The notes below the pieces were generated by a model. The model was given only the letters and a program-made list of their open reading frames with translations, made no database searches and was not told the origin of the DNA. A stretch of 64,000 nt of DNA from Deltaproteobacteria bacterium UBA6601 (GTDB taxonomy: Bacteria; Myxococcota_A; UBA796; UBA9615): assembly GCA_002433485.1 (NCBI GenBank), contig DJIF01000130.1, positions 26,553-90,552 of the forward strand, read 5' to 3'. The position numbers were made by a program, and so were the translations under genes. Positions 5,869 to 40,715 of the stretch are shown here, piece after piece. Each line of letters starts with the position of its first letter. Positions within the stretch are counted from its first letter, which is position 1.

Positions 5869-7393
5869 TCTTTCGTCGCTTATAGAGCTTCCCGGCCTGG
5901 GTGAACACGGCCGAGCTGACGTTGCGGTTGGAGGCGAGCTTCTGCAGGTCCTTGACGTGCAGTGAGTTGAGCAAGCTGATGGCAGTTGGAATGGGCGTCT
6001 TGGGGTTGCCTGCCAGGGCGACCTTTACCGGGTATTTGCGCATGAACTCGCGGTTTGAGGTGAGTGCTCGGATGACCTCCTCGTGAATTGAACGATTGGT
6101 TGCAATGGCCAGCACTTCAGAGTCGGTGATACGGCCTGAGTTGACCACTGCGCAAGCGACGATCTTGTTGGTGTCTCGAACCAGCACTTCGCGGACTCCC
6201 TTGTTGGCCTTATAGGAGAGTTTTATCTTCTCACCGACGGTCATCTCGTCGAGCTGCTGGCGAAGGCTGAGCTTCTTCTCCTCGTCCATCTCCGCCTTGT
6301 CGTCATCAGTGAAGTTGCCGTCAAAGCTGCCTTGCTCTTCGTTTAGGTCAAAGCTGAAATCCGAGTCTTGGAGCGAGGTCTTACCGCTGAGGTCCAGCAG
6401 CACTTCTTGCGCTTCCTCTTCGTCGGCCCTGGCCAGGCGCTGGGCGATGGCTGGGAGCTTGAACTCGCGTTGCACGCCACTGTCGTCAGCGCCAACCACC
6501 ACCGGTCTAGCGTTCAGTTCGTAGGCAGCGGCATCCATGTCCATGGGCGGTGGCGCCAAGAAGCTCGCCTGCAGTGTGATACCCCAATCGCTGAGCAGCG
6601 CCGAGAGAGGGTTGATCAGTCCTTCAACTACGGGCGGGCGGTGTTCGGGCCTGGGCGGAATGTAGACTTCTCCAGCGATGAAGTCGTCCGGCAACTCTAC
6701 CTGTGGCGGGCCTTTGGAGCTCCCAGTTTGCTGCACATCTGCGCTGGCCGATTGTTCTGTGGAAACGGGCGGCTGAGCGGCACCTTGTGTTGGTTCGGCT
6801 GGTTCCGCCGTATCGGCACTGACCTTGGGGGCGGCCTCCTGATCTGGTGCTTGCTCCTGGATTTCGATGCCGTAAAGCCGCAGAAAACTCTTGATGCGAT
6901 CAAGCAGTGAGGCCGCGGTGTTCGGGTTGCGCTGCAGGAAGTAGACCACGCGTGGGCTGACCAGCATGCGCTCCTGGTTGCTTCCAATGATCTCGAGTAG
7001 CCGCCCATCGGCAGTCTCTGCCAGATAGAAAAGGGTCTTGTCATTAAGCTGAGGCATCAGCGCCAGTCGCTCTTGAAGTCGAGCTTCAGGGGGTCGGCGG
7101 TAGGCCAAGAATTCCAAAATCTTGGGATGAGTGTTCTTGTCCAGCATGCCGAGCAGCATCTGTTCGGGAATGCCGAGGATCCCCTTTTGCGCTGCTTTGA
7201 CTACCTCCTCGTCGCCATCGCCGATGAGCAGATACATCATCGCCAGTAGGGTCTTGGGCGGCGCAGGCAGCATGCTGCGCGCAACCGCCATTTTGCCCTT
7301 CTTGGGAGCGTCGGGCGCTACGTGCTTACGCAGATCCGGCGAGATCGCCAGTCGCTCACAGAGCTCCTCGAAGCTGACTTCCTGGTCGCTCAC
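5858..7393 (-). CDS. hypothetical protein (N- and C-terminal helical repeat regions, central acidic Pro/Glu/Asp-rich linker)
   Basis: 511-aa ORF with a coherent codon pattern. No motif I can assign. Repetitive approximately 30-aa helical units at both ends (…ALTSNREFMRKYPVKVALAGNPKTPIPTAISLLNSLHVKDLQKLASNRNV…). Confidence 0.4.
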   Translation of the reverse strand: MSDQEVSFEELCERLAISPDLRKHVAPDAPKKGKMAVARSMLPAPPKTLLAMMYLLIGDGDEEVVKAAQKGILGIPEQMLLGMLDKNTHPKILEFLAYRRPPEARLQERLALMPQLNDKTLFYLAETADGRLLEIIGSNQERMLVSPRVVYFLQRNPNTAASLLDRIKSFLRLYGIEIQEQAPDQEAAPKVSADTAEPAEPTQGAAQPPVSTEQSASADVQQTGSSKGPPQVELPDDFIAGEVYIPPRPEHRPPVVEGLINPLSALLSDWGITLQASFLAPPPMDMDAAAYELNARPVVVGADDSGVQREFKLPAIAQRLARADEEEAQEVLLDLSGKTSLQDSDFSFDLNEEQGSFDGNFTDDDKAEMDEEKKLSLRQQLDEMTVGEKIKLSYKANKGVREVLVRDTNKIVACAVVNSGRITDSEVLAIATNRSIHEEVIRALTSNREFMRKYPVKVALAGNPKTPIPTAISLLNSLHVKDLQKLASNRNVSSAVFTQAGKLYKRRKSGQ

Positions 7394-25382: not shown

Positions 25383-26876
25383 TTACTCCGGTTGGGTTTG
25401 GGCCGTCGAAGTGGGGTTCGACGGCAGTTCGGGAGGGGCTTCGGAGGTTGCGGCCTGGACTTCCAGTTTCAGGCCGTGCACCGCGATCACCGTGATCGGA
25501 CTGTCCTCGCCAATGGGGTCCCTGGAGAAGGCCGCCCAGCGTTCGCTATGGACAAATACCTGGCCAGTCTTACGACCCCCGGGGATGGCGCTCAAGGTGT
25601 GGCCCGCGGCGCCCACCATTCCTTCTTCGCCGCCCATTACCTTGCGAGTGTGTCCGCGCCAGACCAGCCAGGCGACTAAGCCCACGCAGAGCATGGTGAA
25701 GACCACTACGATGGCCACCACTTCAGGAGTGACTCCGATATTGAATTCAGGACTCTTCTTCACCAGAAACAGACCCCCAAAGGCCAGAGACACACCACCT
25801 CCAACCGTCAGCAGTCCATAGCTGGGAAAATAGACTTCGGCAAATAGACAGCCAAAACCAATGAAGACGAAGACCAGGGCCAGCAGATTGACTGGAATGG
25901 CGCTGAGGCCGAATGCCGCGAGCAGCAGCGCGATTGCGCCAACCACACCGGGAATGATGAGGCCCGGATTGTTGAACTCCAGGTAGAAGCCCAGCGCTGC
26001 CAGCGCCATTAGCAGATAGGTCACGTTGGGGTGGGTCAGGAGAGTCAGAACCCGGTGCGCAAGGCTCATGGGCACATGCTCCACCGCTCCCTGCGTGCGC
26101 AGTACCAGTCGCTGGTCTGTCGCGAGGCTGATCTCCTGTCCGTCGATCTGCTCCAGCAAATCATCCAAAGACTCCGCTTCCAGATCGACAACACCCAATT
26201 CGACGGCTTCGTCTACTTGAATTGAGACGCTCTCCCTGACCGCCTTTTCGGCCCAGTCCGCATTACGCCCCCGTTGTTCCGCAACGTTGCGGATAAAGGC
26301 GACCGAGTCATTGGTCACCTTCTCCAACATGGCGGCCTCAGAGTCCTTCTTGGATTCCTCGTCCTCCTGTTCCTGGCCGGTGGTTGGCATGGACATCATC
26401 ACCGGATGTGCTGCTCCGATGTTGGTGGCAGGCGCCATTGCCGCGACGTGTGCAGCCATGGTGATGAAGGTCCCCGCCGATGCAGCCCGAGACCCGCGTG
26501 GACCCACATAGACAATCAGAGGTACTTCCGAACGGAGCATTTCCTTGACCATCTCGCGGGTGCTCTGTAGCGAGCCGCCCGGCGTGTCGAGAACCAAGAC
26601 CACAGCCCGCACCTCCGGGTCCTGTTCGGCCTTTGCGATGCCCTCTACGAAGTAATCCCGCGTACCCCGATTAATGATCTGATCATCGAGGGTGAGGACC
26701 TGGATTCTTCCCGGGCCTGGATCACGAATGGGTTGAGCTTCACCTGCTTTGATCGGCTTGACCGAGGTCTCATCAGACGTGGGCTCAATTGCCTCCTGGG
26801 CACGCGTAGCACTGCTCAGCGCTGCTGTAATCAGCGCCATGCTGAGGATGCAGATGTTTAACAGTCGCAGATTCAT
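25383..26876 (-). CDS. NfeD-family membrane-bound serine protease (ClpP-class)
   Basis: Signal peptide, ClpP-like domain with active-site context (GSRAASAGTFI…AAHPV), C-terminal TM segments and OB-fold tail. ATGA overlap with the upstream ORF. Confidence 0.8.
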   Translation of the reverse strand: MNLRLLNICILSMALITAALSSATRAQEAIEPTSDETSVKPIKAGEAQPIRDPGPGRIQVLTLDDQIINRGTRDYFVEGIAKAEQDPEVRAVVLVLDTPGGSLQSTREMVKEMLRSEVPLIVYVGPRGSRAASAGTFITMAAHVAAMAPATNIGAAHPVMMSMPTTGQEQEDEESKKDSEAAMLEKVTNDSVAFIRNVAEQRGRNADWAEKAVRESVSIQVDEAVELGVVDLEAESLDDLLEQIDGQEISLATDQRLVLRTQGAVEHVPMSLAHRVLTLLTHPNVTYLLMALAALGFYLEFNNPGLIIPGVVGAIALLLAAFGLSAIPVNLLALVFVFIGFGCLFAEVYFPSYGLLTVGGGVSLAFGGLFLVKKSPEFNIGVTPEVVAIVVVFTMLCVGLVAWLVWRGHTRKVMGGEEGMVGAAGHTLSAIPGGRKTGQVFVHSERWAAFSRDPIGEDSPITVIAVHGLKLEVQAATSEAPPELPSNPTSTAQTQPE

Positions 26877-27562
26877 CGACGTCTCTCTCCGGCAGGGCTG
26901 GGCAACTCACGCCCAGTGATCTGCGCATATTTGCGGCGCAGCAGCTTCATGTCCTCGAACACAGCCCGCTTGTCCTGACTGTTCACCAGCAGGTGGCTGG
27001 CGTCGTGGCTATATAGCAGGGCTACGCCGCCGTAGCTGTGCACCGCACCTCGCAGTCGTGCCAGGTCACCACCCCCCGAAAGCAGGCTGCAGACCTTCTG
27101 ACCCAGGGCAATGATCAGGATCCGCTCTGGACGATGGAGCTCAACTGTGATGGCCTGAGGGAGTTGAAGAACGGTCGAGCCAGAGTCCGGCTCCGTCACC
27201 GAGCAGACCCGTACCTCGGACCGGCGCAGGCCAAGAACGTTGTGCAGGATCCGCTCAAACAGGTCCTCGGCTGCGCTGTTGGTTGAGTGCTGGCGAATGA
27301 AGACCAGCTCCGCATCTTCAGGGCCAGTCCAATCAAATTGCCTGAGCGTTGCAGGGGCAACGTCGCTTACTGGATCAGGGCCACGGCTCGGCGAGGCCGG
27401 CGTGCCTGTGGCCGACTCTGAATGGTTGGTGAGGGGGAGCGGGTCCTCTCTTTCCGTCCCGGGCCTGGCGAACTCACGGCCGTGCAGTTCCACCCAAGCC
27501 CGCAGGTCAAGGCTCAGCGCAAGCAACTCATCGGCGGGCGATTCTGGGGCCTGATTGCTCAA
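26873..27562 (-). CDS. uracil-DNA-glycosylase-superfamily (family-4-like fold) protein, catalytic motifs not evident
   Basis: C-terminal 130 aa follows the UDG-family-4 pattern (…LIIALGQKV…LRGAVHSYGGVALLYSHDASHLL…) but lacks clear GE[AG]PG / HPSxL motifs. N-terminal approximately 90 aa are low complexity. 4-nt overlaps with both neighbours. Confidence 0.45.
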   Translation of the reverse strand: MSNQAPESPADELLALSLDLRAWVELHGREFARPGTEREDPLPLTNHSESATGTPASPSRGPDPVSDVAPATLRQFDWTGPEDAELVFIRQHSTNSAAEDLFERILHNVLGLRRSEVRVCSVTEPDSGSTVLQLPQAITVELHRPERILIIALGQKVCSLLSGGGDLARLRGAVHSYGGVALLYSHDASHLLVNSQDKRAVFEDMKLLRRKYAQITGRELPSPAGERRR

Positions 27563-30225
27563 GGGAGCTCCAGATTGGCGAGTCCGATGTTGCCGGCTCC
27601 ATCATCGATGCTGATTTGCCAGTTCTGACTGCCTTGTTCAAGGAGCTGAGCGATTGAAACTTGCACAAGCGTCCCGCTCGAGGTCTCGCTTTGCTCAGTG
27701 ATGCCAAGGGCCACAGCTTCGCCTCCGGTAACGGCAGCGGCGCTCACCTGCAGACCCTTGCCGCTCACCACCAGGGGGGTGGGGGTCGTCGGCGCAGATT
27801 GCGCGTGTAACAGCCGGTAGCCCTGGGCGGCAGCGGTATAGGCGGCCTGTATCTGCAATGAATCACCCTCGACGGCCAGTTCCAGCTCCACCTGTGCAGG
27901 AACCACTTCGAAAGCCTCAGAGCGCAGCTCGTAGCTGATGGTGTCATAGGGGTAGTTATCGTCAGCCGGGTCCTTGCTCGGCCCGTTGACCAGGAAGCGA
28001 TAACGAGTAGTCGGCAGGGTGGCCAGCTGGTCCAGGCCAGCCCAGGTGTTCAGCGGCTGCCACTGAGCATGGTAGTAGTGACGCCGCTCGGGATCCGGTT
28101 CGACGTCTGTGCCGCTGAGCGGATTAGGTGTGTAGGTGACAATGATGTCGGCCAGGGCATCGCTGATGGCGTTGCCCTGGGGGGTCCGCAGCAGCTGCCA
28201 GCTGCCGTCATCCTGCTCTTGTTCAAGCTGCACAGAAAGCAGCCCCAAGGAGGGGTCGCCGCCTTCAAAGCTGAACCGTGCCATTCCCTGAATCCGCGCT
28301 ATCTGTGCTTCGGGCTGAGCCTGCTCGGGAGCCGCGCCGTCCCAGGTGAAGAGGTAATCGGGAACATCGCTCAGGGCTTGTCCGGCGTTTGCGGTTTGGT
28401 CCGGGACTACCGGTGTCTGCTCCCATTCGGGGTACCAGGTGGAGGTGGGGTAGTCGGGCCAGGCCGGGTCTTCGGCAAGCGGGCTGTTGGCCAGGGCAAC
28501 AAGCTCTAGTTGTCGCTCCAGCAGATGTTCTCCCTGCAGGGGTCCCCACCAGGTAATGGCCGGTTCAAACCCACCTTGCAGCCAGTCTTCGACCGTCAAC
28601 AGATAGCCTTCATGGTCCATGGCGTAGCCAAGCACCACAGTTCGGTGCACTTCAGCTTCATGGAGAGCCCGATAGCGCAGGTTCTGGGCCCATAGAGTGG
28701 TGACTTCACCCGGGGCAAATGCCAGTACTACATCCTCTTCCGCGCTCCCCTGCCCCATCACCGTTACCGGCAGACTCCGTAAGCCCAGCGCGCCAAGCAT
28801 GGCAGTGCGGGACTCTGGCAGTGGCAACGGGTACTGCTCCCGGTCTGAGATGAACGCCCGAAAGGCGATGCGGAACAGAGAGAAGCTCTTGTCTACGTCA
28901 AGGCAGCTCTGGTAGGCGGGCAAGGGGACGTTGAGGCCAAACAGTGATATGTCGATCTCCGGCTCACCGCAGAGCAATGCCCCGTGTTGGGCCCAAAACT
29001 CATCAAGAGGACTACGCACACTGCCGTCATCGTTCCAGATCAGCATGTCCGGAACGTATGGGTCCTCTGCCCAGGCCGGGTCCCACGGCAGGTAGTGAAG
29101 ATCGGCACTGCCGGCACGGGTCACACGAATGTCGCGTCCCTGTTCAACATAGCGCTGCGCCGGCTCGAGCTGGATTTCTCCGCCGCGGACTTCGGTGGCC
29201 TCATACAGCTCGAGGATCCCCTGCGCGGCTGTTTCGGCGATGGACTCCATTCGTGCAAAGCCTTCAAATTGACCCCGCGGCGCCACATCACCGGCCGCCC
29301 CCTGGGCGAACATCCAGCGGGGGCCTCCATGGCGTTCGTTGAGCAGCGCACTGATATGGTCAGGAGCTTCGCTGCTGATCAGCGCGTTACTGCCACCCAT
29401 GATGGTTCCATGGATGCCGAAGCTGAAGAGTGCGGCTATGGGACTGCCATCAACGCCATCCACCCGCAGCAAAGTTGCCTGAGGGTCCTTCCAGCCAGCT
29501 CCGGTGGGCGACCCGTCAGGGCCGGGCAGGTGGTCATTCTCGGTGCGTCGATCGCCGAACAGCCGGTCCTCACCGATAGGATCGAACTGAGGGTTGATGC
29601 CGATTCCGATGGCCGCGTCCTGCCGTGTCTCCCAGGCTTGCACAGCCAACTCCACCAACTGACTTACGAGACGATCGAAGATCTCCTGATTGAAGAAGTC
29701 ACCACCGAAGAACAGCACAAAGGCTTTGGTGAACGGCCCGTATGACGAGTGGCTGTGATTGGCCATGGTGAACACTGAGTCGGAGAGGTCCCGACCGATA
29801 CGTTCACTCAGACGCTGGCCGATGGCCTCGGTGAGGCCGTCAAACGAATAAATAAGGCCAAATCGCACCAGCACGGCCGTCTCCTGGCCATTTTCCAGCC
29901 ACAGCACATCGGCGGGAATGCGAGTCTGCCATCCTGCCGACGGGACAAAATCGACCCGATAGTCCGAGTTCCTGGCGTCAGGTCCCGGCTCATTGCCCAG
30001 CGCCCGGTCCCGGTCGGTGTAGCCGCCCAGTGGAACCCCAACTGGCAGGTCGAGAGTACCTCCTGCTACACCCGCCTGTAGCGGTCCGGCTACTGATGGA
30101 GGCCAAGTTGGTCCGTTGTCGTCGTTGTCCTCGCCGCCGCAGGCGGGTAGCAGCAGTAAGAGTAGCGCGGTCAGAAGCGCGACCACCCGATCCAGAACCC
30201 GGCCCGCCACCGCCCGCTTACTCAT
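27559..30225 (-). other. neutral/alkaline ceramidase-like lipoprotein portion (possible internal in-frame start MSKR at 30225)
   Basis: MSKRAVAGRVLDRVVALLTALLLLLLPAC resembles a SPII signal peptide/lipobox, followed by a ceramidase N-terminal-domain-like region and a C-terminal beta-rich tail. Internal start is inference. Confidence 0.4.
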
Positions 30226-31383
30226 CAGTGGCAGTTCGTCGGCACCTCCATCGCGGTCAAGAATGGTTACTGCATTGGTGTCGACCGCAAAGCCGGCTCC
30301 GGCTTGGGAGAGGTCGTTGGCAACAATCAGGTCTAGGTTCTTAGCCTCGAGCTTGGCGCTCGCTCCGCTGAGCAATTCGCTGGTCTCCATTGCGAAGCCT
30401 ACGACGACCCTGGGGCGGGCTTCAGGAACCACCTCGGCGAGGATGTCGGGGCACCGTTTAAGCTCCAGATTTGCTGCGTTTCGGTCGCCCTTTTTGAGCT
30501 TGTGCGATGCGATGTTCTGCGGCCGAAAGTCAGCTACCGCGGCGGCCATGATCAATGCATCCATCCCCGGGAGAGTGCTCTTGATCGCGGCTGCCATCTG
30601 TTCGGCGCTCTCCACATCAATGCGCCGCGCCCCGCGCGGAGTGCTTAGCGCTACCGGTCCGCTGACGAGCGTCACTTCAGCGCCTCTTGCGAGGGCCTCT
30701 TCGGCCAGAGCGAAGCCCATCTTTCCGCTGCTGCGATTGGTGAGGAAACGCACTGGGTCCAGAGCTTCACGGGTCGGGCCCGCCGAGATCAGCAGCTTGC
30801 TATCACTCAGGTCGTTGCTCTGCAACATTCGCTCTACCTCAGCAACGATGACCTCAGGTTCAGGCAGCCTCCCCTGCCCCGACTCGCCGCTCGCCAGACG
30901 GCCCGACTCACTGGGAACAACGGTGATGCCTGAGGCGTTGAGACGCTCGAGGGCCTGGTGGTGAAGGGGATGACCAGCCATCTTGCTGTGCATGGCCGGG
31001 CTGACCAATACCGGCCCATCAAAACAACAGATACAGAGCTTCAGGAGGTCGTCGGCCAGACCTGCGCTCAGGCCGCCGACCAGATTCGCCGTTGCTGGAT
31101 AAACAACGATAGCGTCGGCCCAGCGCGATAGATCCACATGGAGTTCACCTGCGCTGCTCTCATCCAGGGCCCACACGCTCCTGTGCACGGGGTTTTGCGA
31201 GATCGCATGGAAGGTCGGCACGCCAATGAAGCGGGTCGCCGCATCGGTCATGACGACCCGCACCTCAAAGCCGGCATCTTGAAGCCTTCGCACCAGTAAA
31301 ATTGCCTTGAATGCGCTGACCCCTCCGCATACGCCCAGCAGAATCCGGCGCCGTTCCGTCTGATCAGATGACATCGACATCAC
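27559..31383 (-). CDS. uninterrupted 1274-codon ORF: CoaBC (phosphopantothenoylcysteine decarboxylase/phosphopantothenate--cysteine ligase) followed in frame by a lipoprotein-type neutral/alkaline-ceramidase-family protein
   Basis: Residues 1-~405 are a complete CoaBC ending in the family-typical LPLMSKRAVAGRVLDRVVALL. There is no stop codon. The frame continues into TALLLLLLPACGG (lipobox-like) and an approximately 860-aa domain with neutral-ceramidase-like motifs (MANHSHSSYGP, AAGDVAPRG). See findings. Confidence 0.6.
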   Translation of the reverse strand: MMSMSSDQTERRRILLGVCGGVSAFKAILLVRRLQDAGFEVRVVMTDAATRFIGVPTFHAISQNPVHRSVWALDESSAGELHVDLSRWADAIVVYPATANLVGGLSAGLADDLLKLCICCFDGPVLVSPAMHSKMAGHPLHHQALERLNASGITVVPSESGRLASGESGQGRLPEPEVIVAEVERMLQSNDLSDSKLLISAGPTREALDPVRFLTNRSSGKMGFALAEEALARGAEVTLVSGPVALSTPRGARRIDVESAEQMAAAIKSTLPGMDALIMAAAVADFRPQNIASHKLKKGDRNAANLELKRCPDILAEVVPEARPRVVVGFAMETSELLSGASAKLEAKNLDLIVANDLSQAGAGFAVDTNAVTILDRDGGADELPLMSKRAVAGRVLDRVVALLTALLLLLLPACGGEDNDDNGPTWPPSVAGPLQAGVAGGTLDLPVGVPLGGYTDRDRALGNEPGPDARNSDYRVDFVPSAGWQTRIPADVLWLENGQETAVLVRFGLIYSFDGLTEAIGQRLSERIGRDLSDSVFTMANHSHSSYGPFTKAFVLFFGGDFFNQEIFDRLVSQLVELAVQAWETRQDAAIGIGINPQFDPIGEDRLFGDRRTENDHLPGPDGSPTGAGWKDPQATLLRVDGVDGSPIAALFSFGIHGTIMGGSNALISSEAPDHISALLNERHGGPRWMFAQGAAGDVAPRGQFEGFARMESIAETAAQGILELYEATEVRGGEIQLEPAQRYVEQGRDIRVTRAGSADLHYLPWDPAWAEDPYVPDMLIWNDDGSVRSPLDEFWAQHGALLCGEPEIDISLFGLNVPLPAYQSCLDVDKSFSLFRIAFRAFISDREQYPLPLPESRTAMLGALGLRSLPVTVMGQGSAEEDVVLAFAPGEVTTLWAQNLRYRALHEAEVHRTVVLGYAMDHEGYLLTVEDWLQGGFEPAITWWGPLQGEHLLERQLELVALANSPLAEDPAWPDYPTSTWYPEWEQTPVVPDQTANAGQALSDVPDYLFTWDGAAPEQAQPEAQIARIQGMARFSFEGGDPSLGLLSVQLEQEQDDGSWQLLRTPQGNAISDALADIIVTYTPNPLSGTDVEPDPERRHYYHAQWQPLNTWAGLDQLATLPTTRYRFLVNGPSKDPADDNYPYDTISYELRSEAFEVVPAQVELELAVEGDSLQIQAAYTAAAQGYRLLHAQSAPTTPTPLVVSGKGLQVSAAAVTGGEAVALGITEQSETSSGTLVQVSIAQLLEQGSQNWQISIDDGAGNIGLANLELP
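30168..31383 (-). other. coaBC: CoaBC-homologous portion of the 27559..31383 ORF
   Basis: Flavoprotein (CoaC) half GVCGGVSAFKA… and CoaB half with GPTREALDPVRFLTNRSSGKMG and KLKK motifs. Boundary estimated from family C-terminus. Confidence 0.75.
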
Positions 31384-36021: not shown

Positions 36022-36114
36022 GCAGACCCGGCAGCTGAGCCCAGCGAGTCTTTTGGCAAGCTCTGCTGTTCCTTGTCCGCATCACATGCGCCTGCTGTTA
36101 CCCTTGGCACCTTG

Positions 36115-37446
36115 ATGAAGCACCCTGCACTCAAGTTGCTGTCTCTGCTGTTGCTGACCGGATGGTTGGCTGGCCCTTCTGCCCCACTTGTGCTGGCCGA
36201 GGAGGAACAGCAACAGGACGATGGCAGAGCAGAGCCGATGGATAACGATGAGGCCGAGCCCGGCTCCGCTGAATCTCGCCGGGATTCGGCCTTAAGCCCT
36301 CCTATTTGGAGCGCCAGCAGCAATAACTTCACTCGGGCCCGCGGCAGCTCAGGCCCGCGCTTGTTCCCCCAACGGCTCGGCCCGATCGCAGCCCAGGAGC
36401 CTCCTGCGCCGATGAGCTCGCTGTCTGCCCAGGCCTGTAACGCTTGCCACGGTGAACTACACGACCAATGGCGTTCCTCCGGACACTCTACCGCCTCCAG
36501 TAATCCCGTGTATCTGGCAGCCCTCAAAGCCCTTGGTGATCCGCCAGAGTGTCAGGATTGCCACCTGCCGTTAGCAAACCAACGCCCTTACCTGCACCTT
36601 GGGCCTGGTTCCAGCGGACCGCGAAGTGAGAACCCCAGCTACAGCCCGACCCTCGCTCAGGAAGGAGTAACCTGCGCTGCCTGCCATATTCGGGACGGGG
36701 TCATCTACGGGCCTCGCGAACTCCACAGCTCGGCCGCTCCGCATCCGGTTGCACAAGCTGAGAGCCTGCGCGGCACCGAGGCCTGTTCCTACTGCCACCA
36801 GCTGGCCCTACAGGGAGCAGAGGAGCATCCATTCCTTGACACCGTTGGAGAGTGGCTCCGATCGCCCTGGGGGGAAGCTGAGATTCCCTGTCAGGAGTGC
36901 CACATGCCGCGAGTCTCTGGTCAGGTGGCTGGGGCGCGCTACGCCGCTTACTCATCGCACGGCTTTCTGCGGCAGCGCGACCCGCAGGCCTTACGCAGGG
37001 CACTGACCTTAGAAGTGGCTTTGCGCAGCCCTGAGCTGGAGCGGGGCAGTGAACTCCGGGCCAGCGCAACCCTGCTCAACACAGGAGCCGGGCATGCGGT
37101 CCCGACAGGCGATCCAAGTCACCGCCTGGAGCTTCGTTTTGAGTTGGTTGATGCCCAGGGCAACCGCGCTCGGGGGACCTCGATAGAGTCGCACTGGATG
37201 GGCCGTGAGGTGCAAAGCACCCCACCCTTTACCCAACTCTCGGACACTCGGCTACAAGCCGCCTCAAGCCGGGTCTTTGACTATCGGCAGAAGCTCTCTA
37301 CCGCTAGTAAAGCGGGGCGATTCACCCTGGTAGTGAGCGTGCACTGGTGGGCGGTGGCCCCTGAGCGCGCTAAAAAGCATGAGCTTGATGAGCAGCAGGT
37401 TCGGGTTCAGGTGCTTGAGCAAAGAATCCCGGTTCCGGTGTTCTGA
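36115..37446 (+). CDS. pentahaem c-type cytochrome (secreted)
   Basis: Start [28 protein letters not shown] (signal peptide) by codon arithmetic. Five CxxCH motifs (CNACH, CQDCH, CAACH, CSYCH, CQECH) and a C-terminal beta-rich domain with a GAGHAVPTG motif. Confidence 0.7.
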
Positions 37447-38282: not shown

Positions 38283-40715
38283 TTAGCTGGTGGCCTCACC
38301 CTCGAGAGTGTTCAGCACCTCTCGTAGTCGCTTCAGCCCTGAGTCATCACCGCTTGCATACTTGATCCCCATGCCCTGGTCCTTGCCCTCGACGTCTTCA
38401 GCGTCGCGGCTGGACCAGACCACGGCTCCGCGGATCTCGATCGGCTCTTCAACACCAGGAATCGTGAGATGTAGGATGCAACTTCGCCCTACCTCTAGTG
38501 GCTTCTTGGTCTTGACAAAAGTGCCACCTCGTTTGAGGTTCCGCTGGTATTCCTTCACGAAGGTAGCGGTCTGTTTGTAAGAGATGCGCAGCCGCGCCGG
38601 CCGCTTCTTGGGCCGCGCCGGCTCTGGCGCTGGGGCCGCGGGCGCCTGTTCCTGCTCCAGTGGCGTCGAGTGCACAATGGCTGCTCCGGCAGCAACCCCG
38701 GAACTCTCCTCGGCCTTGGGCGCTATGCCAAAGGGGTCGAGATCGTCCAATCCATTGTTCGCCAGATCGAGGTCGTCACTGACGTTGAGCCCTGAGCCAA
38801 AGGGGGAGCTGCTTTCCTTGGGTGCGATGTCATAGATGTCCGCATGGGACAGCGTGGGGATCTCGGCGGTGTCCTCCATATTGGCGGCCAGCGCGCGTGC
38901 AGCAGCTTCTTCGTCACGCTCTGCCACCGCGTGTTCATCGGCAACCAGCGGTTCCGACGCTGGCACCTCAGCAGTCGGTTCCGGCGCTTTGGGTTCGCGC
39001 TCTGCAGCTTCCATTGCAGCCTTGGCTGCCGCTTCGTCACGCTCTGCCACGGCGTGCTCATCGGCCGAGCCGCGGCGCGCCATCTTGGCAAGTTTGCCGA
39101 GCAGACCGCTGCCTTCCGACTTGTCGTCTGATGGTGGTGGTGCGGAGCTTGCTGCCGAGGCCGGCTGGGGGCCGTCCCCTTCGGTCAGAGTGACGGCCTT
39201 GACATCGTCTTCCCGAACAAACTCGCGGATCGAAATCTCATGGCTCTCACCCGTGTCCCGGTCCATCGCGCTGACATGCAGGATGGCGTTCCCGTCGACC
39301 TTGAAGGTGACGTCAATCTTGGGCTCGTGACTGAGGGCTTCTCGAATCCCCTGCAGGGTAAACTCACCCAGAAACTCGTTGTCGTCAGCGATGTTACTTT
39401 CGCCCTGCCGGACGATCACCTGGACCTGCTCTTGATTGTCAACCACCGTAGTGAACGTACGTGTCTCCGAGCAAGGGACGGTGGTGTTGCGCTTGATGAT
39501 GGGCCGGCAGTAACCTCCGGCCACATCCATGCCTAGGCTGAACGGAGTGACGTCGAGCAGCAACGGAGCATCGCTGTCCTCCCCTCCCCCTTCACCCAGG
39601 AAGGAGCCGTGCACCGCCGCGCCGATGGCGACCACCTCTTCGGGGTGAACACCCTTGCAGGGATTCTTACCAAAGTAGACCCGAATGGTTTCCTGGATCT
39701 TCGGCATCCGAGTCATGCCACCAACCAGGATAATCTCATCGAGTTCTTCGGTCTTGATCCCAGCTTCACGAAGCGCTTCGTCAGTGATGCGAATGGTCTC
39801 GTTGACCAGATCCTGAACCAACTCCTCAAGTTGTTCTCGACGGAGCTCAACCTCAAGGTTCTTTGAACCCTGCAAGCGCGGAATAAGGACCGGCGTGCGG
39901 TCGACGAAGCTGAGCTCACACTTGGCCTTCTCGGCGGCGTCCTTGAGTCGCTGCAAGGCCCCAAGGTCTTCCCGTGGGTCCGCGCCGCCAGCCGCCATGA
40001 ATTGCTCAACCAGCCAATCTACGATGCGGTAGTCAAAGTCTTCGCCGCCCAGAAAGGTGTTGCCGGCCGTTGCTAGGATTTCGTAGACCCCCTCGGCGGC
40101 TTCGACTACCGAGACATCAAAGGTTCCACCGCCCAGGTCGAAGATCGCGATCTTTTTATCGATGTCCTTCTTAAAGCCGAATGCCAGAGCCGCTGCGGTC
40201 GGCTCGTTGATCAAGCGCAGGACATTGAGACCGGCCTTCTTGCCAGCCTCCATGGTGTCCTGCCGCTGCTGGTGGCTGAAGTTGGCAGGGACGGTGATGA
40301 CCGCATCAACAATGGTCTCGTTGAGGTTCTTCTCGGCGATCTCCTTGACCGCCTTGAGGATGATGGATGACACCTCTACCGGAGTCACCTCCACCTCACC
40401 CATCCGCAGGACTACATCCCCGTGGTCATCCGCCAGGATGTCGAAGCTCAGGTGCCTGGACGCCTCCTGGACTTCATCAGAGCTGAACTTCCGGCCGAGC
40501 AATCTCTTCACCGAATACAGGGTGTTCTTCGGGTGGTTGAGCACCAAGGCCTTGGCTCCGTGCCCAACCAGGAAACGACCCTTGCCGCTGGTCGCAACGC
40601 AGGACGGCAGGATGTTGTATCCCCGGTCGTCTTCCAGGACCTGAGGTCTGCCGTTGCGCACTACAGCTACACAGCTGTTGGTTGTGCCCAGGTCAATGCC
40701 GATGATGGCCGCCAC
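38283..40715 (-). CDS. Hsp70/DnaK-family ATPase with low-complexity linker and C-terminal PilZ-like domain
   Basis: Hsp70 NBD (IGIDLGTTNSCVAV, DLGGGTFD, ILVGGMTRMP) + SBD. Then an approximately 180-aa acidic/Ala-rich linker with an internal tandem repeat. Then an approximately 110-aa domain (RLRISYKQTATFVKEYQRNLKRGGTFVKT…GMGIKY) resembling PilZ-type c-di-GMP-binding domains. PilZ call is motif-level only. Confidence 0.8.
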   Translation of the reverse strand: MAAIIGIDLGTTNSCVAVVRNGRPQVLEDDRGYNILPSCVATSGKGRFLVGHGAKALVLNHPKNTLYSVKRLLGRKFSSDEVQEASRHLSFDILADDHGDVVLRMGEVEVTPVEVSSIILKAVKEIAEKNLNETIVDAVITVPANFSHQQRQDTMEAGKKAGLNVLRLINEPTAAALAFGFKKDIDKKIAIFDLGGGTFDVSVVEAAEGVYEILATAGNTFLGGEDFDYRIVDWLVEQFMAAGGADPREDLGALQRLKDAAEKAKCELSFVDRTPVLIPRLQGSKNLEVELRREQLEELVQDLVNETIRITDEALREAGIKTEELDEIILVGGMTRMPKIQETIRVYFGKNPCKGVHPEEVVAIGAAVHGSFLGEGGGEDSDAPLLLDVTPFSLGMDVAGGYCRPIIKRNTTVPCSETRTFTTVVDNQEQVQVIVRQGESNIADDNEFLGEFTLQGIREALSHEPKIDVTFKVDGNAILHVSAMDRDTGESHEISIREFVREDDVKAVTLTEGDGPQPASAASSAPPPSDDKSEGSGLLGKLAKMARRGSADEHAVAERDEAAAKAAMEAAEREPKAPEPTAEVPASEPLVADEHAVAERDEEAAARALAANMEDTAEIPTLSHADIYDIAPKESSSPFGSGLNVSDDLDLANNGLDDLDPFGIAPKAEESSGVAAGAAIVHSTPLEQEQAPAAPAPEPARPKKRPARLRISYKQTATFVKEYQRNLKRGGTFVKTKKPLEVGRSCILHLTIPGVEEPIEIRGAVVWSSRDAEDVEGKDQGMGIKYASGDDSGLKRLREVLNTLEGEATS
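38906..39064 (-). repeat. two copies of an approximately 34-nt direct repeat (approximately 125 nt apart) inside the DnaK-paralog linker
   Basis: cttcgtcacgctctgccaccgcgtgttcatcggc vs cttcgtcacgctctgccacggcgtgctcatcggc (2 mismatches). Encodes ADEHAVAERDE(A/E)AA on the minus strand. Confidence 0.6.

Follow-up and report, generated by a model that had tools for sequence, protein, structure and literature searches.

How does the gene for CoaBC, a cytoplasmic enzyme of CoA synthesis, come to continue without a stop codon into a large protein with the appearance of an exported lipoprotein? The question is raised by a 64,000-nucleotide stretch of DNA from Deltaproteobacteria bacterium UBA6601 (assembly GCA_002433485.1, contig DJIF01000130.1, positions 26,553 to 90,552), referred to here as the window. 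A preliminary description, made from the letters alone, had noted a CoaBC open reading frame (ORF) running on into a lipoprotein-type, neutral-ceramidase-like domain, and had left three options: an assembly error that removed the coaBC stop, an internal in-frame start that yields a nested second protein, and a genuine fusion. Here we find a single ORF at 27559..31383 with no in-frame stop, and a join that is shared with diverged relatives. The fusion is genuine, long maintained and due to a deletion, and we consider it reasonably probable that the core of a former lipoprotein signal peptide still directs export of the C-terminal domain, with cleavage by signal peptidase II (LspA) before Cys415.

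Codon-by-codon reading of the junction gave zero in-frame stops (...LPLM387SKRAVAGRVLDRVVALL404-TALLLLLLPA-C415-GGEDNDDNG...). A complete CoaBC (residues 1-404) is followed by a hydrophobic stretch of 10-15 residues ending in LLPA/C415, and this by an 860-aa domain of ceramidase fold. The 1273-aa form that begins at ATG is the one deposited at NCBI (MBJ94359.1), and the only name given to the fused protein in public records (NCBI, JGI) is 'CoaBC'. The gene is closely packed on both sides: the end of the upstream Sua5/YrdC gene overlaps the start of the fused ORF by about 20 nt (window 31364-31383), and the stop of the fused ORF shares 4 nt with the TTG start of the next gene (27559-27562). Such tight operon packing fits a fusion that came about as a by-product of spacer loss.

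Completeness of the CoaBC half was judged from three comparisons. Pfam places Flavoprotein at residues 13-186 and DFP at residues 193-375 of the whole ORF; the CoaBC equivalog TIGR00521 scores 395.6 bits (cutoff 219.7) with profile positions 2-391/392 covered; and the alignment with Mycobacterium smegmatis CoaBC (6TGV) extends over residues 9-404 (E 1.6e-80), reaching the C-terminal helix of 6TGV. CoaBC is thus complete and ends at L404, in agreement with the earlier view of ...VVALL as a family-typical C terminus. By its sequence this half looks fully functional, and no second coaBC copy was found within the 64-kb window. A stand-alone CoaBC would have about 400-420 aa and a stop after the CoaB helix; at this locus about 870 further open codons follow.

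The C-terminal part matches Ceramidase_alk (PF04734) over residues 497-702 with 41.3 bits (cutoff 32.1), and the motifs quoted in the preliminary description as ceramidase-like (MANHSHSSYGP, AAGDVAPRG) are indeed present, MANHSHSSYGP holding the invariant HxH. An AlphaFold2 (AF2) model built with a 106-sequence alignment has a mean pLDDT of 95.6 and a pTM of 0.94. In a Foldseek search against the PDB, the best matches to this model were, by a wide margin, human neutral ceramidase (4WGK, E 2.9e-36) and the Pseudomonas aeruginosa enzyme, PaCD (2ZWS/2ZXC, E 4e-35/4e-33), with TM scores of 0.73-0.76 when target-normalised and 0.57-0.59 when query-normalised, at 16% identity. All matches ranked below the ceramidases were Ig-domain chains, which aligned with the two C-terminal beta-sandwiches. 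Alignment with 2ZWS pairs H543, H545, R613, H658, E893 and Y927 with PaCD H97, H99, R160, H204, E411 and Y448, respectively. All six active-site residues, comprising the Zn ligands H543, H658, E893 and Y927 and the catalytic H545 and R613, are invariant in the 106 homologues.

At positions conserved in at least 95% of the family, the window protein differs at only 2 sites, the same as its relatives. Position 939 is Phe in the window and Tyr in 99 of the 106 relatives, including the other three fused proteins described below. It aligns with PaCD Tyr460 and human Tyr591, which are listed as critical for catalysis (PMC6952831), and F939 may signify an altered activity or specificity in the window's lineage. 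The neutral-ceramidase equivalog NF041649 scores 22.3-23.6 bits against a cutoff of 1200, which leaves ceramide unproven as a substrate, and no sphingolipid-synthesis genes were detected among the 20 neighbouring ORFs scanned. Judged from sequence and model, the domain is most likely a distant member of the neutral-ceramidase superfamily and a Zn-dependent N-acyl amidase. The idea of a ceramidase-like lipoprotein therefore stands as far as Pfam family, fold and active site are concerned, and falls short at the equivalog cutoff for neutral ceramidases proper.

The join is found well beyond this one contig. Over 6,822 nt the window is 100% identical to ENA ERZ8578527 NODE_44 (143 kb) and to GCA_002720175.1 PBHG01000016.1 (372 kb), and at least five contigs encode precisely this 1273-aa protein. 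Homology searching with the C-terminal part brought up, at about 69% identity, three other fused ORFs from other samples; the amino acid identity of these diverged relatives is about 64-70%. They are P0001 (1277 aa), P0003/L003 (1278 aa) and P0002/L004 (open frame of 1280 aa). The JGI call of P0002 (1236 aa; L004 5848-9711) begins about 44 codons late, the true open frame starting with MSMQSEPGARR. All four fused proteins join at the identical CoaBC residue. In the other three the junction reads ...VLDR(L/V)xxLL/PALL..., followed by the h-region and by GC(G/P)G with an acidic run, where the window has ...VVALL/TALLLLLLPAC-GGEDNDD.

Among the three fused DNAs available, the proportion of synonymous differences (pS) is 0.59-0.80 (about 0.7 in the two large segments), which amounts to saturation. 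The dN/dS values, where computable, are about 0.11-0.16 for CoaBC and about 0.05-0.09 for the C-terminal domain; they serve only as rough upper-level indicators, since synonymous sites are saturated and dS is not estimable for one pair per segment. Both halves are under purifying selection. A frame of about 1275 codons that has been kept open through this divergence, with selection acting on both halves, is that of a maintained gene, and the option of a genuine fusion is borne out by the same-residue join, the saturated divergence and the purifying selection.

The fused architecture is confined to a small clade. When 1.84 billion representative proteins were scanned with no word-index shortcut, only one representative (P0002) matched across both halves, the remaining matches being to CoaB alone or to the C-terminal domain alone. 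A metagenome scan with generic CoaBC peptides (LDLIVAND, AGFxVDTN) returned 80 ordinary CoaBC loci and the stand-alone relative L026, and no new fusion; where a match extended beyond residue 76, the protein was a CoaBC with a short tail of unrelated sequence. A profile search with the junction alignment returned CoaB fragments only and did not recover P0001-3 themselves. In JGI metagenome 3300008954 a fused locus (Ga0115650_1000272, L004) and a stand-alone locus (Ga0115650_1000030, L005) are both present, which places the two architectures together in one habitat.

The origin of the fusion can be traced in more distant relatives, at 41-69% protein identity, in which the two genes are separate (L001, L005, L006 and L010-L021). 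Their records name uncultured marine 'Deltaproteobacteria' or Myxococcota metagenome-assembled genomes (MAGs), several of them from Tara Oceans, according to the record titles. In six of six gene-mapped relatives the gene order is Glu/Leu/Phe/Val (ELFV) dehydrogenase, Sua5/YrdC, CoaBC, lipoprotein, UDG, NfeD and Band7, and the window has the same gene neighbours. In the other relatives, down to 41% identity, tblastn likewise places coaBC immediately upstream of the lipoprotein gene. Stand-alone coaBC encodes 404-408 aa in the gene-called relatives, and its stop falls 0-12 residues (commonly 1-2) past the equivalent of L404, for example in ...VLDRIALLLSS*. The lipoprotein ATG follows 9-113 nt after this stop in all of them, and opens a reading frame with a short, positively charged n-region of its own (for example MIQTCLPQRRW... 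or MRAIAP...). In L014, L017, L018 and L021 the two genes share a frame, and only the stop and three codons lie between them.

A stop after ...VVALL in orthologous loci, which the preliminary description had linked to a simple sequencing error, was thus found in these distant relatives only, and is lacking in the three relatives with the fusion; this distribution points to an ancestral state rather than to error. On sequence comparison, the stand-alone gene pair is the ancestral state. In the fused proteins no remnant of the old lipoprotein start and n-region was found, the last CoaBC helix meeting the h-region directly, so that the event was a deletion, reaching from the stop across the spacer into the 5' end of the signal-peptide coding region, and not a point mutation in the stop. 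The identical junction residue in all four sequences favours one fusion event rather than two.

The spacers of the stand-alone relatives have a sequence motif in common, CTTGCAGTAGGGTTGTGCCGCC (L001 5958-5978; L005 about 5919-5939; L006 within the spacer 5908-6000). Where the spacer is 9-12 nt long, a shorter form, GGGTAGGGT, overlaps the coaBC stop, with variants in L010-L014 and L018. The motif is absent from the window, having been lost by deletion in the fused clade; it has no Rfam match, and its consensus fold is weak (-4.9 kcal/mol). The motif may serve the lipoprotein gene as a ribosome-binding or regulatory element.

The core of the old signal peptide has survived the deletion. The h-region, the Cys and the acidic tether are kept in all four fused proteins, and the lipobox Cys is aligned in at least 90% of the 106 homologues as well as in the four fused proteins. 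In the window lipobox, L-P-A-C, positions -3 and -1 fit the pattern [LVI][ASTVI][GAS]C but Pro at -2 is atypical, and the lipoboxes of the other fused proteins are SMGC, LLGC and VAGC. Past the end of CoaBC the h-region has 10-14 residues in the fused proteins, compared with 12.0 +/- 3.7 in 95 stand-alone relatives, and this length matches the signal h-regions of the family rather than a stable transmembrane span. In the full ORF, however, the h-region is not N-terminal; it begins at about residue 400, behind a complete enzyme, and would count as an N-terminal signal with a short, positively charged n-region only if translation began at M387. An AF2 model of the junction (residues 190-520) has one continuous helix from residue 389 to 410, so that the folded CoaB domain passes into the hydrophobic stretch without a linker. 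On the other side of the predicted cleavage site, pLDDT stays below 50 over C415-N420, the opening six residues of the mature model, and the remainder is confidently folded.

These observations suggest the following course of events. In the ancestor, coaBC stood next to the lipoprotein gene within a compact housekeeping operon. There a deletion took the coaBC stop, the spacer, the start codon of the lipoprotein gene and the positively charged n-region, and joined the last CoaBC helix in frame to the leftover h-region and lipobox. Since no stop ends coaBC, any ribosome that finishes CoaBC necessarily continues into the full precursor, and a full-length product of about 1273 aa must be translated. 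CoaBC would then stay cytoplasmic, acting as a 400-residue 'n-region', while the hydrophobic segment would insert N-in/C-out and Sec would carry the ceramidase-fold domain over the inner membrane. Lgt would lipidate Cys415, and LspA would cut between A414 and C415. The predicted products are an 860-aa mature lipoprotein and a CoaBC with a short membrane-embedded tail, which signal-peptide peptidase may clip. We regard it as possible, if not quite probable, that the protein is in this manner a natural 'polyprotein', an internal signal being split by Lgt and LspA into membrane-tailed CoaBC and a mature ceramidase-fold lipoprotein; the two products would arise in fixed 1:1 amounts, coming from one translation event.

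The chief alternative is that the lipoprotein is made mainly from an internal start (ATG at 30225, or GTG at 30210/30186) as the precursor MSKRAVAGRVLDRVVALLTALLLLLLPA followed by C, the full-length protein being a by-product that supplies CoaBC. In the window, a peptide beginning at M387, the MSKR start of the preliminary description, is indeed a typical and credible precursor for signal peptidase II, with an n-region of net charge +3, an h-region of 15 residues and then the Cys, and the Met is present in all four fused proteins. Motifs resembling Shine-Dalgarno (SD) sequences precede this Met in three fused DNAs (GGAGGT, GAGGAG and GGAG; -12.9, -6.4 and -6.4 kcal/mol), GAGGAG in L003 lying at an ideal 6 nt from the ATG, and are missing in four stand-alone relatives with the same Met (-1.7 to -3.8 kcal/mol). 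However, the Met belongs to a widespread CoaBC motif, LPLMSK, seen in stand-alone CoaBCs of many bacteria, so that its conservation needs no start function. The SD-like motif lies 18 nt (window) or 20 nt (L004) from the ATG, beyond the canonical SD distance, and a promoter scan found no promoter-like site in the 3' part of coaBC. Moreover, counted from M387, the n-region has a net charge of -1 in P0001 and P0003, unlike all 95 stand-alone signals, of which 29 have a charge of 0, 44 of +1, 19 of +2, two of +3, one of +4 and none a negative charge. The deletion of the old start and n-region, the inherited Met and the negative n-regions together favour the fused precursor over an internal start, which we regard as unlikely, though not negligibly so. 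The full-length fusion would be made even if an internal start were used, because coaBC has no stop.

It is still less likely that the protein is an uncleaved bitopic enzyme, in which a permanent signal-anchor would hold CoaBC at the cytoplasmic side of the membrane and the ceramidase-fold domain at the periplasmic side. Many proteins, PknB-type kinases among them, have an N-in, single-span, C-out arrangement with a large enzyme domain in the cytoplasm; the uncharged stretch of 15-19 residues in the fused proteins is at the long end of the family range, and the window lipobox is atypical in its Pro at -2. Against this, all four fused proteins have retained the Cys and a small residue at -1 although their divergence is saturated, and of the 15 uncharged residues in the window protein five lie in the folded CoaB helix, which leaves about 10, too few for a stable span. 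A dodecameric CoaBC permanently fixed to twelve 93-kDa ectodomains is also hard to picture. Programmed frameshifting or recoding that ends CoaBC near the junction is very improbable: off-frame stops do lie a few codons from the junction in the window (a +1-frame TGA at CTTCTGACC) and in L003 (a TAG), but they are expected there by chance, in L004 the first +1-frame stop is about 12 codons farther away, no slippery motif is present, and nothing is conserved at the nucleotide level. Least probable of all, and practically dismissed, is a sequencing or assembly error that removed the coaBC stop or shifted the frame. The source is a MAG of modest coverage (7.2 for the ENA contig); yet two assemblies are identical and the stop-free join recurs in three diverged relatives that come from other samples, which refutes this first option of the preliminary description. 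Both flanks are in one frame, with homology up to the join and no homopolymer at the junction, and the off-frame TAA at AGTAAG to which attention had been drawn is irrelevant, because CoaBC homology continues in frame through ...VVALL.

Several points nevertheless weigh against an exported and LspA-cleaved fusion of single origin. All steps beyond the open ORF are inferred. Pro occupies position -2 of the lipobox in only one of 95 relatives. In neighbour-joining trees the bootstrap values for grouping the four fused sequences are 70% for CoaBC, 35% for the C-terminal domain and 59% for the concatenated alignment, with the window sequence on a long branch in both halves. Searches of the literature found no natural LspA-cleaved internal signal and no natural internal lipobox. 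Finally, CoaBC assembles into a dodecamer in which CoaC forms the core and CoaB dimers lie at the periphery in a tetrahedral arrangement (PMC7794376). On structural models, twelve linker-less, membrane-tethered C termini would seem to pose a steric problem, unless the tail is clipped or insertion is limited to some of the protomers; the difficulty would also be eased if CoaBC assembly follows release.

The coordinates of the fused gene and its parts are given in Table 1.

Table 1. Positions in the window of the fused ORF, its domains and its candidate signals
Feature	Position	Strand	Basis or remark
Whole fused ORF	27559..31383	(-)	1274 codons counted from GTG at 31383; stop TGA 27559-27561
Probable start of fused ORF	ATG 31378-31380	(-)	gives 1273 codons/aa
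CoaC (phosphopantothenoylcysteine decarboxylase) flavoprotein domain, aa 13-186	30826..31347	(-)	PF02441, E 2.3e-24; 6TGV alignment
CoaB (phosphopantothenate-cysteine ligase) domain, aa 193-375, with C-terminal helix to L404	30172..30807	(-)	PF04127, E 1.8e-70
Candidate SD-like motif GGAGGT	30244-30249	(-)	18 nt upstream of M387 ATG
Candidate internal start, ATG of M387	30223..30225	(-)	sequence reading
Further in-frame candidate start, GTG of V392	30208-30210	(-)	
Further in-frame candidate start, GTG of V400	30184-30186	(-)	
Hydrophobic segment VVALLTALLLLLLPA, aa 400-414	30142..30186	(-)	L-P-A precedes Cys; first five residues also end the CoaB helix
Fusion point	between L404 (30172-30174) and T405 (30169-30171)	(-)	
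Cys415 codon TGC, predicted lipidated +1 Cys of mature lipoprotein	30139..30141	(-)	aligned Cys across homologues
Stretch beginning after Cys415, GGEDNDDNGPTWPPSVAGPLQAGVAGGTLDLPVGVPLGGYTDR			
Acidic flexible tether GGEDNDDNG, aa 416-424	30112..30138	(-)	AF2 pLDDT; DDDD-rich stretch kept in relatives
Catalytic domain, neutral-ceramidase fold, ~aa 429-974	28462..30099	(-)	Pfam, alignments, AF2, Foldseek
Conserved residues H543 and H545	29749-29757	(-)	
Conserved residue R613	29545-29547	(-)	
Conserved residue H658	29410-29412	(-)	
Conserved residue E893	28705-28707	(-)	
Conserved residue Y927	28603-28605	(-)	
F939	28567-28569	(-)	Tyr in most relatives and in solved ceramidases
Two C-terminal beta-sandwich (Ig-like) domains, ~aa 1027-1154 and 1158-1272	27568..28305	(-)	AF2 secondary structure, Foldseek

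Three further observations were made in the window. A 229-aa ORF (26873-27562, minus strand) sits where all relatives have a UDG-family (PF03167) gene; it begins with TTG, is shorter than the UDG genes of the relatives (257-327 aa) and has no Pfam match at E 1e-5. At 38283-40715 (minus strand) lies a gene for an 810-aa Hsp70/DnaK-family protein with a C-terminal PilZ (c-di-GMP-binding) domain. The 457-aa protein encoded at 36073-37446 (plus strand) has a weak match to MtrC/MtrF-like multihaem outer-membrane cytochrome domains and is present at the same position in relatives.

Each half of the fused protein belongs to a known family, and both the fusion of neighbouring genes and bitopic enzymes are ordinary. 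CoA synthesis and lipid hydrolysis are probably not linked adaptively by the fusion, which looks like a tolerated accident of operon compaction. Literature searches found no description of a natural lipoprotein precursor whose signal core lies behind a complete, essential cytoplasmic enzyme. If export and cleavage take place as proposed, a natural lipoprotein signal peptide need not stand at the N terminus: Lgt and LspA would be able to act on one preceded by a folded enzyme of 44 kDa, and an enzyme that is both essential and cytoplasmic could be tethered to the membrane for a time. This would bear on signal-peptide predictors, genome annotation, the evolution of fusions from operons and the engineering of lipoprotein display. 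If the fusion is no more than an accident that has been tolerated, with the lipoprotein made from an internal start, the locus provides a useful caveat for annotation and nothing more. In addition, the finding defines a family of ceramidase-fold lipoproteins of about 860 aa, with more than 100 members, in marine Myxococcota-like bacteria.

Among the closest known counterparts are the stand-alone pairs of coaBC and lipoprotein genes, in which the lipobox Cys is followed by an acidic tether, as in the window. These pairs keep the coaBC stop, the spacer, and the ATG and n-region of the lipoprotein, whereas the window keeps none of these. Internal in-frame starts that yield shorter isoforms are familiar in bacteria from IF2 alpha/beta, ClpB and the long and short forms of CheA. 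There, one frame gives a long product and a shorter C-terminal one, as could be the case here. The products of IF2, ClpB and CheA share function and compartment, in contrast to the cytoplasmic enzyme and the exported lipoprotein of the fused gene. Hayashi, Chang, Chang, Giam and Wu reportedly found in 1985 that engineered, internalised prolipoprotein signals were modified and processed in Escherichia coli and Bacillus subtilis (J Biol Chem 260:5753, PMID 2985611). Their constructs had a lipoprotein signal core behind an N-terminal extension, as the window protein does; they were laboratory constructs, whereas the extension in the window protein is natural and consists of a complete, essential 404-aa enzyme.

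Known CoaBCs (6TGV; E. coli CoaB, 1U7U) have the same two Pfam domains as the N-terminal 404 aa of the window protein. They are soluble cytoplasmic dodecamers of about 400-420 aa per chain, whereas the last CoaBC helix of the window protein enters a hydrophobic segment and an 860-aa domain. With PaCD (2ZWS/2ZXC) and human ASAH2 (4WGK) the C-terminal domain has in common the predicted fold, the Zn ligands and the catalytic His and Arg. The solved neutral ceramidases have one Ig-like domain; the window protein has two and is about 200 aa longer. PaCD is secreted and the human enzyme is type-II anchored, whereas the window protein is predicted to be anchored as a lipoprotein.

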